Positions 5,078-63,087 of a stretch of DNA of 64,000 nt are shown piece by piece; positions within the stretch are counted from its first letter, which is position 1, and every line of letters begins with the position of its first letter. Source of the DNA: a virus (taxonomy: Duplodnaviria > Heunggongvirae > Uroviricota > Caudoviricetes); the IMG/VR virus record IMGVR_UViG_3300005512_005684, positions 39,003 through 103,002 of that record; one strand, 5' to 3'. The notes under the pieces were generated by a model that saw only the letters and a program-made list of their open reading frames with translations, did not search any database and was not told the origin of the DNA. Made by a program: the position numbers and the translations under genes.

Positions 5078-5368
5078 ATGGCTAAGTCAGTAGTGGCGTT
5101 CCATCGTGCTCGTAAGGCCGACCTGGGAATGAGTGTTCAAGAGTATCGGTTGCTCCGTAGTCAATTGTCGTCTGCTGACCTTGGAGTATTGAACCAAGCA
5201 CGTACGTCTCTGGAGAAAGCGTCAGGTGTTGTTCGTGGTGCGATTAAGGGTATCCAAGATGGTCTGGATCGAAAGACCGTACGTCAATTGTTAAGAGACC
5301 TCGGTGGAGCGTACATGTTGCTGCGTCAGTTAGAGGACGAGTCTCGCTTCAAGGCGTGGAATGGTTAA
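5078..5368 (+). CDS. cassette protein with variant leader MAKSVVAFHRAR
   Basis: Upstream motif present; leader resembles MAKSIVAYHRGR at 63089. Confidence 0.6.
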   Translation: MAKSVVAFHRARKADLGMSVQEYRLLRSQLSSADLGVLNQARTSLEKASGVVRGAIKGIQDGLDRKTVRQLLRDLGGAYMLLRQLEDESRFKAWNG

Positions 5369-58716: not shown

Positions 58717-58934
58717 TCGAGACAGTGAGGTTGGGCTTGTAAGCGACAAGGAAGACAATACATCTGGTTTCATTTGGGTCTCCCTTTGATGATTGAAAGG
58801 AGGTGATCAACGGTCCCAAAGTCTGTACGTTGCGGCCATCGGCTGCGTTAGGTTAGGTCTGCTTTTGCTATGATGCCGGTGTTGTATCCGGTTGGCAATG
58901 TTTGTTGTGTCTTTTGCTATGGGGGATAGGTTCA

Positions 58935-59669
58935 ATGCCTACGAAGTCAAGTACGAATGGGAACGGTGACGCTCTTGCTTTGGGGAGTGCAGTTCGGTAC
59001 GAAGTGACCGGTGTCTCGAAGTCGAGGATTCTCTATCATCGGCGAATGGATCCACCTGAAGAGGTGAAATGGGCAGAGAAGTGCAAAAAGGAGGGCAAGG
59101 ATCCGAAGAAAACGGATAACGTTGCCGCCTTTGTGTACCGCTGTCCTGAGACGGGTAACATTATCATTCCGGCCAAGTGGCTCAAGGGAGCCATGTGTCA
59201 GGCGGTCAAGGGTGAAAAGGTCGAGGGGAAGGGCAACCTCGGTTGGCCAGGCAAAGTGAAGCCGGGTATTGCTGTGACTCCTGAGTGTATCGAGTACACA
59301 CCGGGTAAGAAAAGCCGTGACGGTGTGTTCGGTGAATGGGTTACGGTGAACGGGAAGCAGGTCTGGAGAGATCGTCCGTTCGTTGCACCCGGCACCGAGT
59401 TCAAGTTCGTCGTAGAGGTCACGGAGACCGAAGACATATCCGAGGAAGTCCTCATGTGGATTCTGAAGCGTGCCAGCCTTTTCGGCATTGGCGATAACCG
59501 TCCTGGCAAGAGTGGTGGGAGCTTTGGCCGGATCAGGTTCACGTCTCTTGCTCGGATCGACGAAGAGGAAGAGGACGAGCTTGTCGTGGTTGACAAACGG
59601 AAAAAGAAAAACGGCAAGCGCAAGAAAAAGCGTAACGGGAAGGTTTCCACTGGTATCGCTGTGGGGTAA
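58935..59669 (+). CDS. Cas7-like RAMP protein 1
   Basis: IIIPAKWLKGAM (RAMP P-x-x-x-L-K-G), RDRPFV..GTEFKFVVEV, terminal G-loop FGIGDNRPGKSGGSFGR, then an acidic/basic tail. Confidence 0.75.
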   Translation: MPTKSSTNGNGDALALGSAVRYEVTGVSKSRILYHRRMDPPEEVKWAEKCKKEGKDPKKTDNVAAFVYRCPETGNIIIPAKWLKGAMCQAVKGEKVEGKGNLGWPGKVKPGIAVTPECIEYTPGKKSRDGVFGEWVTVNGKQVWRDRPFVAPGTEFKFVVEVTETEDISEEVLMWILKRASLFGIGDNRPGKSGGSFGRIRFTSLARIDEEEEDELVVVDKRKKKNGKRKKKRNGKVSTGIAVG

Positions 59670-59672
59670 ATC

Positions 59673-60227
59673 ATGGAACGCGACAATTACCTAAAGGCGA
59701 TTCTCGCGAGCACGAAACCCGTGTTCATGTCGCCCCGGACAGAGTTGTTGCCCCCTGACAGTAGTTCTGAAACGCTACGAAACGCTGCGAACGTAAGGCG
59801 CGTGGATGGTCAGGGGCGTCTGGGTCTTCCTGCGACTTGGCTGAAAAGGAGCTTGCGAGAGGCTTCCTCGAAGGTCAAGTTGTCTGGGACTCGGACGTGT
59901 CGATCCGCAGTTGATACAGGGGTGTTCGTCTTTCCAGACGAAGTGATCCCGTTCACCACGCACGAAGAGGAAACGTGTCTGCGTACGATGCGTATGCAAG
60001 GTATTGTGACCACGTGCGAGCGGTTGAAGGTGAAGTGGTGGGAACTTCCTCTCGTTTTGATGTATTCGCCGTCTATGATTACCCGAGAACAGTTGGAGGA
60101 AGTTCTCCGGGTGGCCGGTGAAGAAATCGGTGTCGGTACATACCGACCGCAGTTCGGTACGTTTGCGGTCAAAAAGTGCTTGAGAGTGAAGCAGAGTACT
60201 GCGGAGTCTCTCTTGGACGCCTATTGA
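59673..60227 (+). CDS. Cas7-like RAMP protein 2
   Basis: LGLPATWLKRSLREA, RLKVKWWELPLVLMY, G-loop AGEEIGVGTYRPQFGTF. Confidence 0.75.
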   Translation: MERDNYLKAILASTKPVFMSPRTELLPPDSSSETLRNAANVRRVDGQGRLGLPATWLKRSLREASSKVKLSGTRTCRSAVDTGVFVFPDEVIPFTTHEEETCLRTMRMQGIVTTCERLKVKWWELPLVLMYSPSMITREQLEEVLRVAGEEIGVGTYRPQFGTFAVKKCLRVKQSTAESLLDAY

Positions 60228-60480
60228 ATATCGTTGATTTTCGGTAGGTCAGGGTGTGTTTAGTTTCGGTATGTTGGTTTTCAGTTACGTTACGCTCCGT
60301 CATTTTACAATACCACTGCGTGTTGTCCCTGCTCCCTGGCGTTTGGGCCTTTTTTCGGTTCGATTCCGAATGGGAGCTTAGTGTTATGTTCCGTTTTGTC
60401 GTGGTTCGCTATGTTGGCTTGGGTTAAGGTTTAGTGTGTTCGGCTTTGTCGATTTACAACACCTTTGAGTGTTGTCCCCT

Positions 60481-60528
60481 ACTCCTGAGAGGTCTGGTCT
60501 TTCATTCGGTTCGACCCCGGACAGGAGT
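60481..60528 (+). ncRNA. representative tRNA-like element (acceptor stem, mini D-arm, T-arm; no anticodon arm)
   Basis: ACTCCTG-AGA GGTCTGG TCT-ttca-TTCGG TTCGACC CCGGA-CAGGAGT. Other copies start at 60331, 60721, 60857, 61005, 61432, 61582, 61729 and 61874. Confidence 0.7.
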
Positions 60529-61166
60529 GCTATCTGGTAAGGTCCGTTAAGTTTCGTTAAGGTATGATCAGTCATGTTGGGTTTTGACACTTTACAATAC
60601 CACTGCGTGTTGTCCCCTACTCCTGAGAGTATGGTGCGTTGGTGTAAGGTAAGGCGGGGTTGGTTGGGTTAAGTTAGCTTCAGGTGTGTCCTTTTACAAC
60701 ACCACTGCGTGTTGTCCCCTACTCCTGAGCGACGGGCTTTACTTGGTTCGACTCCGAGTGGGAGTGTGGTTTCGTTGCGTTTCGTTAAGTTATTCTACGT
60801 TATGTTGTGGTCCGTTCAGTTTCGTTCTCTTACAACACCACTGCGTGTTGTCCCCTACTCCTGAGAGGTCTGGTCTTTCGATCTGGTTCGATCCCGGACA
60901 GGAGTGTTAAGGTTAAGTTAGGTTCGGTCTAGTTCTAGTATGCTACGTTCTGTTTTGTTCTGTCAGGGTTCGTCTCTTTACAACACCACTGCGTGTTGTC
61001 CCCTACTCTTGAGCGACGGGTTTTCATTCGGTTCGATCCCGGACAGGGGTGTTGTCCGGTTGCGGTTAGTTTCGTTTAGGTGGGTTTTGTTGGTCTTTGT
61101 TCGGTTCCGTCACTTTACAACACCGTTGCGTGTTGTCCTTATTCCTGTGTTTTGATCGGAGTGAAA

Positions 61167-61424
61167 ATGGAGTCGATAGGAAGCGAACCGTTGTTTCAGA
61201 GGGCGAGAGCTAGAGCGTCTGAAGTGTTAAGTGTGGAGAGTGGGTTGGTAGTCTTGAGATTGAGAGTGTCGAGGATGGAAGGTAGTGGGAGGATTGATCA
61301 TTCTAGTTCGTTGAGACTGCAAGGGTGGCTTGTCGGTCTTATGGATTTGTTGAAGGAAGAAAAGCAGGCAAGTGTTGGTGCTATGCGACGTATAAAAAGT
61401 GTTGTCAGTGAGTTTGTTTGTTGA
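61167..61424 (+). CDS. small helical protein inside the array
   Basis: GGAG RBS; the only non-repetitive segment inside the array; 85 aa. Confidence 0.55.
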   Translation: MESIGSEPLFQRARARASEVLSVESGLVVLRLRVSRMEGSGRIDHSSSLRLQGWLVGLMDLLKEEKQASVGAMRRIKSVVSEFVC

Positions 61425-62000
61425 TTGTGTTACTCCTGAGAGGTCTGGTCTTTCGATCTGGTTCGATCCCGGACAGGAGTGTTGTCTGCCATGTTCCGTT
61501 AAGTTCCGTTCCGTTGCGTTGATGTGAGGTTTGTTGAGGTTCGTTCTGTCAATCTACAACACCTTTGAGTGTTGTCCCCTTACTCCTGAGCGACGGGTTT
61601 TTCTCGGTTCGACTCCGAGCGGGAGCTTAGAATTATGTTGGTGTCGGTTACGCTCTGTTCTGTTAGGTTCAGTTCAGTTACGTTCCGTTCGGTTGGGTCA
61701 ATCTACAACACCCTTGCGTGTTGTCCCTACTCTTGAGTGACGGGCTTTACCTGGTTCGACTCCGGGTGAGAGTGCTAGTGTTACGTTATGTTCCGTTTAG
61801 TTAGTTTCCGTTGAGCTTTTGGTTTGGTGCGTTGAGTTCGGTCGATTTACAACACCGTTGCGTGTTGTCCCTTACTCCTGAGAGGTCTGGTCTTTCATTC
61901 GGTTCGACCCCGGACAGGAGTTGAGTGTTGAGGTTAGTTATGTTCCGTTACGTTCCGTTCCGTCTCCGTTACGTTACGGTATGGTTCGTTACGTCAATCT

Positions 62001-62028
62001 ACAACACCGCTGCGTGTTGTCCCTTTTT
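62001..62028 (+). terminator. last array hairpin followed by CCCTTTTT (possible weak intrinsic terminator)
   Basis: 7-bp stem with a T5 run 3 nt downstream; no other hairpin copy has this run. Confidence 0.3.
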
Positions 62029-62041
62029 GGAGGTTTGTCGG

Positions 62042-62452
62042 ATGGAAGAAAGAAATCAGGATGTAGTCACTGCGGAAGCGAAGGCGATCAAAGCCTACGT
62101 CGATAAGACTTGGGGAAGGCATGTTAATACGGAACTCGAAGTACCGTTGCGAGACCTTTTCCCTAAGCCGGAAAAGAAACACCTGCATAGTATGTGGGAG
62201 AAAGGTGCAGCGGACGTAGTGGTAAGACGGAGGGACGGCAGCGTGTTGACAATCATTGAGCCAGGTGGTGGCCAGCATCTACGGCGAGAGCAGAACACGA
62301 GGGACAAAAAAAAGTTCGCCATTTGCTCTCAGAATGGCGTAGGGTGTCTTCAGATGTTGAACGGCGTCATGACTTCGTTACCGAAACGTCAGTGGCGGCG
62401 ATTCCTTGGAAGCTATATCTGGGGGAATGTCAAGGCGTCTGAGACCAACTGA
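62042..62452 (+). CDS. PD-(D/E)xK restriction-endonuclease-fold protein (DUF2726/Vsr-like)
   Basis: AADVVV...LTIIEPGGGQH...RDKKKFAICSQNGV; GGAGG RBS before ATG 62042. Confidence 0.6.
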   Translation: MEERNQDVVTAEAKAIKAYVDKTWGRHVNTELEVPLRDLFPKPEKKHLHSMWEKGAADVVVRRRDGSVLTIIEPGGGQHLRREQNTRDKKKFAICSQNGVGCLQMLNGVMTSLPKRQWRRFLGSYIWGNVKASETN

Positions 62453-62562
62453 CAGAGAATACTCTCTCCTAATCTTTTTCTACGACGGACACAGCAGCGG
62501 AGACGTTGCCGTGTCCGTCTTTCTATGTACTGATACCGGGAATTACTCGACGATAATTCTCC

Positions 62563-63087
62563 ATGAATGCTCGAATCGAAGCCATAGCAGTCCGGGTGGC
62601 CTACAACCCCGAGTTACATCGGAGTGAACTGCGTGAGCGGGTGAAAACCAAGCCCAAGCATGTTTACAGAGGGTTGGCCATTAAGCCAAGTAGTTCAGAT
62701 TGGGAGAGCATTAAGAGGTGGTCGCGGCCGCCAATGGAAGAGAGTGAAATCGGTCAACATTTCAATCTGGGGCCATTGGTCTTGGATTTTCTTGAAAAGA
62801 GACACGGTGGCCTGGGAGTTCATTGGTCGGTGAGAGAGAGCATGGCGAAGACGGCTGCGTATGTTCGTGGTCGTGAGCAGAACTCATTGCCCGTGGTATT
62901 AACGGTCGAGTTTGACGAGGGTACGGTGGACTGGGACGCGGATGATACCTCCGGTTTTACGACAGAGGGGGAGATACCGTTGAAACCCGGTGCCCGTGTT
63001 AAGGTTACGGATGTCTATTTGCCAGACCTTCCACTCAGTGAACGCGTGAAACACATACTACGTTCACCAAAAGTTGCGAGGGTGTAG
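62563..63087 (+). CDS. ADP-ribosyltransferase-like protein (R-S-E clade)
   Basis: VYRGL, GVHWS and TEGEIPLKPG in ART motif order; N-terminal IAVRVA. Confidence 0.6.
   Translation: MNARIEAIAVRVAYNPELHRSELRERVKTKPKHVYRGLAIKPSSSDWESIKRWSRPPMEESEIGQHFNLGPLVLDFLEKRHGGLGVHWSVRESMAKTAAYVRGREQNSLPVVLTVEFDEGTVDWDADDTSGFTTEGEIPLKPGARVKVTDVYLPDLPLSERVKHILRSPKVARV

Follow-up and report, generated by a model that had tools for sequence, protein, structure and literature searches.

Anticodon-less tRNA mimics between the guide RNAs of a phage-encoded VIPR array

Introduction

How are the guides of a long, phage-encoded guide-RNA array parted from one another? The question is raised by a region of an IMG/VR virus record (IMGVR_UViG_3300005512_005684; Caudoviricetes; 331,348 bp), from which we analyzed a stretch of 64,000 nucleotides (nt), positions 39003-103002 of the record, referred to below as the window; coordinates are window positions unless marked as genome positions. 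Here, nine tRNA-like elements of 45 to 49 nt, all on the + strand and inside 1.6 kb, are interspersed among the guides of an array that adjoins two genes for Vipr proteins. We report that the array holds the guide RNAs of a VIPR system (Viral Interference Programmable Repeat; bioRxiv 10.64898/2026.04.26.720920) carried by the phage, and we lean toward the view, drawn from the sequence, that the tRNA-like elements (mini-tRNAs) serve as end-defining cutting marks for host RNase P and RNase Z between the guides.

VIPR is a newly described kind of RNA-guided DNA recognition, proposed to be ancestral to the RAMP proteins of CRISPR systems, and guide maturation is known for few of its array types. 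The published sources, which cover 667 VIPR loci, are three preprints of 2026 (bioRxiv 10.64898/2026.04.26.720920, 10.64898/2026.04.26.720927, and 10.64898/2026.10.15.759431). Vipr is a minimal RAMP with an RRM core, a thumb, and a G-loop. It polymerizes on guide RNAs (vrRNAs) in which 9 to 16 GGY/NN pentamers are followed by a structured tail as 3' cap; double-stranded DNA is read by the NN bases, one base being skipped in every unit, and the natural targets are competing phages and satellites (bioRxiv 10.64898/2026.04.26.720920). As described in the main text of these sources, VIPR loci hold two genes, vipr and vap, and no Cas6, and their arrays include ones with pseudoknot tails, staggered arrays, loci with a single vrRNA, and arrays interspersed with hammerhead ribozymes. 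The same text refers to a "related consensus" and to the non-canonical triplets NNNGG, YNNNG, WGT, TGH, GAC, and CAC. Supplementary files apart, neither tRNA-like elements nor RNase P is mentioned in the text of the three preprints or of a language-model survey that recovers VIPR arrays.

Results

Nine mini-tRNAs with an acceptor stem and a T-arm

The mini-tRNAs lie at the following positions:

60331-60377, + strand: mini-tRNA T1, with acceptor GCTCCC(T), D-like stem GGC/GCC, and T-arm TTCGG/CCGAA; U.U at pair 7:66
60481-60528, + strand: mini-tRNA T2, identical to T9 within the element
60721-60765, + strand: mini-tRNA T3
60857-60905, + strand: mini-tRNA T4, identical to T6
61005-61050, + strand: mini-tRNA T5
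61432-61480, + strand: mini-tRNA T6, between a small open reading frame (ORF) and vrRNA 8, with no hairpin upstream
61582-61626, + strand: mini-tRNA T7, with A.C at pair 1:72
61729-61773, + strand: mini-tRNA T8
61874-61921, + strand: mini-tRNA T9

An initial annotation, made from the letters of the sequence, had placed the nine elements correctly and quoted their stems and loops without error. It had also proposed a fold with an acceptor stem, a D-like arm bearing GG, and a T-arm, lacking an anticodon arm and CCA, and RNAalifold recovered this fold unaided: run on a MAFFT alignment of the nine copies with no structure supplied, it returned a 7-bp acceptor stem, a 3-bp D-like stem, and a 5-bp T-stem. 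The D-like stem closes a loop of 5 to 7 nt that always has GG at its end, the linker is 3 to 5 nt long, and the T-loop has 7 nt. The motif GGTTCGAYYCC is invariant in the nine copies and corresponds to the tRNA T-arm consensus with its G53-C61 pair. No anticodon arm is present, the gap between acceptor and T-stem being only 14 to 21 nt, and CCA is not encoded. The elements are therefore not canonical cloverleaf tRNAs, while their acceptor and T-arm are those expected of a tRNA.

Pairing was also said to be preserved across variants, and in the main it is: the copies are 64 to 100% alike, and two-sided (compensatory) changes occur at 6 of the 15 pairs, the blemishes being the U.U of T1 (the copy with the GGC/GCC D-like stem) and the A.C of T7. 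Acceptor and T stems are paired in 96 to 100% of cells. Over the whole fold 97.5% of cells are paired, compared with 32 to 55% when the 3' partners are slid along the alignment (46 to 55% for slides of 1 to 3 columns) and 90.9% in shuffles. Of 500 shuffles, 0 attained this paired fraction and 0 matched the covariation score of the nine copies.

The elements are concentrated in the array. A strict search, which demanded the T-loop motif, a perfect T-stem, and seven of seven acceptor pairs closing 40 to 58 nt, found 7 elements in 1.6 kb, against 0.05 per Markov-shuffled 331-kb genome (20 shuffled genomes); one further match genome-wide, at genome 236333-236385, lies in the region of the tRNA cluster. 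When a covariance model was built from the nine copies, a check suggested along with the annotation, its matches in the genome were those nine only (59 to 74 bits). ARAGORN called no tRNA in the window, and Rfam gave no match within 59500-62600, whether tRNA, hammerhead, or other ribozyme, at the gathering threshold or at E values up to 10. The silence of both tools on the mini-tRNAs is expected because the anticodon arm is missing.

The surrounding array belongs to a VIPR system

Two vipr genes, the 11 vrRNAs, and two ORFs make up the remainder of the locus:

58902-59669, + strand: vipr paralog A, a 255-aa RAMP with an uncertain start codon and a Lys/Arg-rich C-terminal extension
59673-60227, + strand: vipr paralog B, a 184-aa Vipr RAMP (phrog_4652, E 3e-12)
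60233-60326, + strand: vrRNA 1, 14 pentamers, hairpin 60307-60326
60383-60475, + strand: vrRNA 2, 14 pentamers, hairpin 60456-60475
60536-60613, + strand: vrRNA 3, 11 pentamers, hairpin 60594-60613; followed by an acceptor remnant only
60628-60715, + strand: vrRNA 4, 13 pentamers, hairpin 60696-60715
60769-60851, + strand: vrRNA 5, 12 pentamers, hairpin 60832-60851
60912-60999, + strand: vrRNA 6, 13 pentamers, hairpin 60980-60999
61054-61136, + strand: vrRNA 7, 12 pentamers, hairpin 61117-61136; followed by a degenerate acceptor remnant
61167-61424, + strand: small ORF of 85 aa within the array, with a Shine-Dalgarno-like GGAG upstream; no Pfam or PHROG match
61483-61575, + strand: vrRNA 8, 14 pentamers, hairpin 61556-61575; candidate target in Bryobacteraceae
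61632-61724, + strand: vrRNA 9, 14 pentamers, hairpin 61705-61724
61780-61868, + strand: vrRNA 10, 13 pentamers, hairpin 61849-61868
61927-62020, + strand: vrRNA 11, 14 pentamers, hairpin 62001-62020; the ribosome-binding site of the next gene follows directly
62042-62452, + strand: downstream ORF of 136 aa, with a weak DUF2726 match (E 8.5e-4, under the curated cut-off); possible vap

The protein evidence is clearest for paralog B, which on its own matches PDB entry 36pp ("SUSP1 Vipr protein") with a phmmer E value of 2e-5; a profile of 80 family members that include it matches the same entry at E 3.7e-54. The analysis counted 4,411 Vipr homologs. Its AlphaFold (AF2) model has a pLDDT of 87.8, and the top Foldseek matches of the model are Csm3/Cas7 (probability 1.0, TM 0.5 to 0.6). 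The more divergent paralog A aligns with the Vipr family alignment at an hhalign probability of 98% (E 2.4e-13) and carries the G-rich loop motif GIGDNRP...FGR; its best PDB match is again SUSP1 Vipr, at an E value of only 1.1. Pfam, NCBIfam, and PADLOC returned no match to a Cas model for the proteins adjoining the array, and a Vipr model is absent from all three collections.

Each of the 11 vrRNAs consists of 11 to 14 pentamers of the form G-K-Y-N-N, mostly GUU/NN, and a 20-nt hairpin. Position 1 of the pentamer is G (0.89), position 2 is U (0.71) or G (0.22), and position 3 is U (0.87) or C (0.13), while positions 4 and 5 are free, so that the five positions hold 1.37, 0.85, 1.45, 0.04, and 0.03 bits of information. 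Base identity at lags of 5, 10, or 15 nt is 0.50, compared with 0.2 to 0.3 at other lags. The tail hairpin (ACAACACC, a variable loop, and GTGTTGT; a 7-bp stem) closes every one of the 11 units, does not recur elsewhere in the genome, and has no match to its pattern in IMG/VR; because its stem is nearly invariant, covariation gives the hairpin no support.

An adjoining Vipr protein, tandem pentamers in the range of 9 to 16 whose triplet (GUU) is non-canonical, and an unvarying structured tail at the 3' end identify the region as a guide-RNA array of the VIPR kind, encoded by a phage. The initial annotation was right that the tRNA-like elements punctuate guides made of a tract and a hairpin, and it missed what these guides are, namely vrRNAs and not CRISPR-type spacers. 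Its statement that the elements replace Cas6 stands as an analogy only, since described VIPR systems do without Cas6 and the hammerhead-interspersed array is the closer parallel (bioRxiv 10.64898/2026.04.26.720920).

Several other identities were considered for the region. A CRISPR array was rejected on the grounds of units of 102 to 151 nt, a variable part that is a period-5 tract and not a spacer, and the lack of a Cas-model match; a hammerhead-interspersed VIPR array was rejected on the Rfam result given above. A sponge for a TRAP-like or other host protein, replication-origin iterons, promoter repeats, translation of the A-poor tracts, a reverse-strand transcript, and an attP fragment of a tRNA gene were all dropped; with the Vipr homology and the N-N entropy pattern in view, VIPR accounted for the data.

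Placement of the mini-tRNAs and a proposed processing route

A mini-tRNA directly precedes 9 of the 11 tracts, and where a hairpin stands upstream its distance to the mini-tRNA is fixed at 4 to 6 nt. T6 parts an mRNA, that of the 85-aa ORF, from vrRNA 8, with no hairpin ahead of the element. Two junctions hold remnants in place of a complete copy: a truncated 5' acceptor (ACTCCTGAGAG) at 60619-60629, where vrRNA 3 runs into vrRNA 4 with no intact mini-tRNA between them, and a degenerate 5' acceptor of a lost mini-tRNA at 61141-61147, after vrRNA 7. The 85-aa ORF, which lies between the latter remnant and T6, looks like an insertion into a junction.

At the sequence level the mini-tRNAs present the features of a substrate for tRNA-processing enzymes: a 12-bp stack of acceptor and T-stem (7 + 5), a T-loop, and a loop bearing GG as elbow partner. 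The base at -1 is U in all nine copies and CCA is not encoded, a context that favors cleavage, the lack of CCA being suited to the RNase Z route. The discriminator, N73, is G in six copies and U in three, followed by TAG, CTA, TGG, TTA, TTG, or GAG. Neither RNase P nor RNase Z, as is well established, needs an anticodon arm in its substrate; both act on acceptor/T-arm minihelices and on tRNA-like domains that lack this arm, as in the MALAT1-associated small cytoplasmic RNA (mascRNA), transfer-messenger RNA (tmRNA), and the C4 RNA of phages P1 and P7; RNase P model substrates of this kind reportedly go back to McClain in 1987. The P1/P7 C4 RNA is mentioned in PMC3378863 and PMC11143913.

We therefore propose the following route. 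The two vipr genes would be followed by one + strand transcription unit that carries the 11 vrRNAs, probably as a single precursor. Cutting of such a precursor at the mini-tRNAs would fit the lack of a ribozyme and of a sigma-70-like promoter, the presence of a mini-tRNA ahead of most tracts, and the placement of T6; the promoter search found no sigma-70-like + strand promoter inside the array, which is a weak test as it covers the sigma-70 consensus only. The RNase P cut would fall at the first acceptor base, so that the preceding vrRNA would terminate in its hairpin plus CCCCU. A second cut, behind the discriminator, would come from RNase Z (or from another 3' activity) and would generate the 5' terminus of the following vrRNA. 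The 7-bp hairpin would close each vrRNA as its tail, and by analogy with SUSP1 VIPR, a Vipr filament would coat the vrRNAs and read DNA through the NN positions. The mimic would in this way take over the job that the hammerhead ribozyme has in other VIPR arrays, and would presumably be discarded.

T-rich runs with a terminator-like score follow hairpins 7 and 11 (61117-61146 and 62001-62030). Such sites may make the 3' ends of vrRNA 7 and vrRNA 11.

Mini-tRNAs in other VIPR loci and in other phages

IMG/VR was scanned for T-loops repeated three times at regular spacing, and two unrelated contigs, both of phages, turned out to share the layout of the window array. One of them (L139; minus strand, 930-1950) combines NNAAC pentamers with 41-nt mini-tRNAs, one directly after each tract, and the other (L147) combines GGCNN pentamers with 40-nt mini-tRNAs. 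In both contigs, as in the window, the gene adjoining the array belongs to phrog_4652. A gene of this family is flanked by pentamer tracts also in Felixounavirus wV8, in Pseudomonas phage LESphi2, and in mycobacteriophage LittleE, the last of which (L178:5140-5440) has GGC/NN tracts and two mini-tRNAs between gp33 and the tape measure gene and encodes a Vipr homolog as gp34. As a cultured and well-known mycobacteriophage, LittleE is an accessible experimental model for the question of the tRNA mimics. A further locus (L291:40-215) has NNAAC pentamers with a 41-nt mini-tRNA directly after the tract. Mini-tRNAs that adjoin pentamer tracts are thus found in five loci of very different phages: the window, L139, L147, LittleE, and L291. 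Read on the strand that carries the mini-tRNA, the fixed triplet of L139 and L291 is AAC, the reverse complement of GUU in the window; neither GUU nor AAC is among the examples of triplets in the text of the VIPR preprints.

Across four of these loci, 15 distinct mini-tRNAs, anchored on their T-loops, keep 96.7% of their acceptor and T-stem pairs even though the stem sequences are unrelated; the acceptors across the VIPR loci read ACTCCTG, GCGAGCC, GCGGCGT, TCCCCGA, and TCCGGCA. When partners were shuffled across the four loci, a mean of 62.5% and at most 71% of pairs formed, and 0 of 2000 shuffles reached the observed value. Covariation in homologous arrays, one of the points on which the initial annotation had staked its proposal, is therefore present. 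Pairs were counted by a structure-anchored script because a cross-family MAFFT alignment misaligns the 5' strands. The covariance model of the nine copies scores the mini-tRNAs of the other VIPR loci weakly, and on distant relatives by large terminase (LR745208, Tunturi_5, and two IMG/VR contigs) it found T-arms of true tRNAs only. In JGI metagenomes, the five matches to a mini-tRNA-specific pattern fell in coding DNA or terminators and are attributed to chance.

Mini-tRNAs are absent at the VIPR loci of wV8 and LESphi2 and at four further ones (L292-L295), which have hairpin or other tails instead. In wV8, an Escherichia phage, a 58-nt direct repeat annotated as 'DR_4' (L176:3756-3813 and 5149-5206) directly follows the GGT/NN tracts that flank gene 95. 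Gene 95 encodes a Vipr homolog (E 4e-57 to the family hidden Markov model), and 'DR_4' probably corresponds to the 3' tail region of the vrRNAs.

Outside VIPR loci, the pattern AATGGTT-N6-8-GGTTCGANNCC occurs in more than 107 IMG/VR phage contigs (loci L179-L283). In half of the matches listed, an acceptor of 6 to 7 bp closes a mini-tRNA of about 40 nt with neither a D-stem nor an anticodon arm. Nearly all of the mini-tRNAs among the matches listed are single-copy and intergenic, often right after a terminator, with no vipr gene or pentamer tract nearby; examples are L183:4803, L179:2016, L234 (minus strand, 7637), and L196 (minus strand, 1733). ARAGORN made no call on these elements in nine loci checked. 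They look like a widespread phage RNA element of unassigned role.

Alternative roles of the mini-tRNAs

Cutting marks for host enzymes remain the role that we think somewhat probable, and three sets of observations weigh against it. Hairpins 3, 7, and 11 are not followed by a mini-tRNA and none stands upstream of vrRNA 1, so a further end-forming route must exist for these three 3' ends and for the start of vrRNA 1. Minimum free energy folds of single sequences favor other pairings, without the T-arm. Finally, in L139, L147, LittleE, and L291 the mini-tRNA sits at the tail position of the vrRNA, directly behind the last pentamer or at most 15 nt from it, which makes retention of the element on the mature guide as plausible as its excision in those loci. 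Retention would mean that the mini-tRNA delimits the Vipr filament, either as a structured 3' tail or cap or as a handle at the 5' end, much as the SUSP1 pseudoknot tail does, with at most one cut per junction, for example by RNase Z after the discriminator, possibly followed by protective addition of CCA. That the four loci have no structured tail besides the mini-tRNA after the tract would fit this, as would the fixed spacing from hairpin to mini-tRNA in the window, the filament-capping role given to the SUSP1 vrRNA tail in the text of its preprint (bioRxiv 10.64898/2026.04.26.720927), and a 670-aa CCA-adding enzyme of the phage that could protect such a 3' end. In the window, however, the conserved hairpin already fills the tail position in 11 of 11 units, three units have a hairpin and no mini-tRNA, T6 has neither hairpin nor tract before it, and the free tRNA-like 5' boundary with its uniform U at -1 has the look of an RNase P site. 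For the window we regard retention, the chief alternative, as rather unlikely.

Release of the mini-tRNAs as independent tRNA mimics, for example to draw off host tRNA-binding enzymes or tRNA-targeting defense nucleases as decoys or sponges, with the array as a convenient site of expression, would be in keeping with the single mini-tRNAs of the same build (acceptor, AATGGTT, and T-arm) in intergenic regions of many phages that have no vipr gene or pentamer tract. We consider it very improbable: the anticodon arm that anticodon nucleases need is missing, their recurrence in five VIPR loci of unrelated phages is specific to tract boundaries, and acceptor sequences vary so freely between loci that no identity set is conserved. 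It is scarcely credible that the elements are decayed tRNA genes, a tRNA-derived mobile repeat without a role, or parts of a Cas6-less CRISPR array. The two truncated remnants and the likeness among copies would suit decay, but compensatory changes keep the pairing, the same arm is missing in nine of nine copies, and mini-tRNAs are confined to the array despite a true tRNA cluster 135 kb away; the period-5 code and the adjoining Vipr genes differ from the anatomy of repeats and spacers. Taken together, these considerations lead us to prefer the role of cutting marks for RNase P and RNase Z. A broader picture, which we offer tentatively, is that anticodon-less mini-tRNAs could be a general and so far unrecognized punctuation device of phages: host RNase P and RNase Z would mature the guides in one branch of VIPR (GUU/NN, AAC/NN, and the GGC/NN of actinophages), which would make this the first natural tRNA-guide polycistron, and the same 40-nt module would mark many ordinary intergenic regions of phages.

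Candidate target of vrRNA 8

No self-target beyond shuffled controls was found when all vrRNAs were compared with the phage genome under skip rules of 0 to 3. For vrRNA 8, a search of 185,579 species genomes with a 10-unit core gave a single exact match, which lies in a metagenome-assembled genome of Bryobacteraceae (Acidobacteriota; OZ255834.1). With a 1-nt skip, the vrRNA 8 tract (61483-61555) matches L284:3378-3409 (G003:C1:5131378-5131409) over 11 perfect units and half of the next, 23 of 24 positions; the site lies 42 nt into a gene for an extracytoplasmic function (ECF) sigma-70 factor, and each skipped base coincides with the wobble position of a codon. By chance alone, roughly one match would be expected over the 1.2e12 positions scanned, and no other vrRNA maps within 60 kb. 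The phylum agrees with that of terminase relatives of the phage, and the geometry agrees with published VIPR targets. The 10-unit core of vrRNA 9 had no exact match in IMG/VR and none in the Bryobacteraceae genome. We treat the vrRNA 8 match as a lead only, pointing to a possible host in Acidobacteriota and a possible host-directed target.

Genome setting

The record is that of a jumbo phage that encodes a large terminase, a portal protein, a ribonucleotide reductase, an NAD-dependent DNA ligase, and the 670-aa CCA-adding enzyme. The gene for this enzyme lies at genome 172349-174361, and its product has an N-terminal extension of about 215 aa; some of the phage tRNA genes apparently lack an encoded CCA. 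All long ORFs of the record are on the + strand, which has a strong excess of G over C. The true tRNA cluster, with at least nine tRNAs, is at genome 234-239 kb (234359-239053). The nearest terminase relatives are distant (28 to 38% identity) and include an uncultured 485-kb phage and the Tunturiibacter (Acidobacteriota) phage Tunturi_5. No DNA similarity to GenBank phages was found, and the proteins neighboring the array have no close relatives in IMG/VR, where a word-index search with vipr paralog B returned only itself. Three ORFs (61167-61424, 62042-62452, and 62563-63087) have no significant family match, and no vap gene was recognized among them. Glycosyltransferase genes are numerous, unusually so for a phage (26385-27434 and 56170-58143 in the window; genome 251635-254760 and 274760-278170), and their products include proteins of more than 1,000 aa with two glycosyltransferase domains.

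Discussion

If host RNase P and RNase Z indeed part the vrRNAs of this array, guide biogenesis can be left entirely to universal tRNA-processing enzymes, which would explain arrays in loci that have neither a dedicated nuclease nor a ribozyme and would provide a compact natural part for guide multiplexing, 45 nt long and without an anticodon arm. The many single-copy mini-tRNAs of other phages suggest a wider RNA-processing signal. With this locus, GUU/NN joins the known pentamer codes, and a single array is seen to go with two Vipr paralogs; arrays with GUU/NN and AAC/NN offer test cases for how Vipr reads the fixed triplet.

The VIPR system as such is known; the text of the VIPR preprints does not describe the GUU/NN code, the two Vipr paralogs, or punctuation by tRNA mimics. 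Like published VIPR systems, this one is encoded by a phage, with a Vipr homolog next to a non-coding array of tandem pentamers that have three fixed and two hypervariable bases, in 11 to 14 units (published, 9 to 16) and about 100 nt per vrRNA, with an invariable structured 3' tail. It differs from them in its triplet, which is G-K-Y and mostly GUU where GGY is published, in its two tandem vipr paralogs with no clear vap gene where one vipr and vap are published, and in a tail that is a simple 7-bp hairpin where SUSP1 has a pseudoknot. Unlike VIPR as the preprint text describes it, the window has 11 vrRNAs in one array with anticodon-less tRNA mimics between them. The nearest parallel within VIPR is found in the hammerhead-interspersed arrays of types I and V (fig. 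S19 of bioRxiv 10.64898/2026.04.26.720920), where a small structured RNA module, presumed to be a separator, likewise stands between vrRNAs. The module of the window, by contrast, does not cleave itself, and its processing would call for RNase P and RNase Z from the host.

Processing signals that resemble tRNA are found on several non-tRNA transcripts, namely the tRNA-like domain of tmRNA, the mascRNA of MALAT1, the tRNA-microRNA-encoded RNAs (TMERs) of murine gammaherpesvirus 68 (MHV68), and the precursor of the P1/P7 C4 antisense RNA, which is cleaved by RNase P. In all of these a mimic of the acceptor and T-arm recruits tRNA-processing enzymes for the maturation of a regulatory RNA, as the mini-tRNAs may do by analogy, and the tmRNA domain likewise has no anticodon arm. 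Those are single elements, near-complete tRNAs in the case of MHV68, whereas the window has a nine-fold punctuation of a guide array and a link to a RAMP effector. A second analogy is with polycistronic tRNA-guide RNA (PTG) arrays engineered for CRISPR multiplexing, the original work on which is reportedly that of Xie et al. in 2015. In such arrays a tRNA-shaped unit stands between one guide and the next, and the guides are set free by endogenous RNase P and RNase Z (PMC6297969 and PMC13032600), much as we suppose for the vrRNAs here. PTG arrays are man-made and use full tRNA genes to deliver Cas9 or Cas12 guides in eukaryotes, while the array of the window would be a natural counterpart in a bacteriophage, with mimics of 45 to 49 nt and vrRNAs as its guides.

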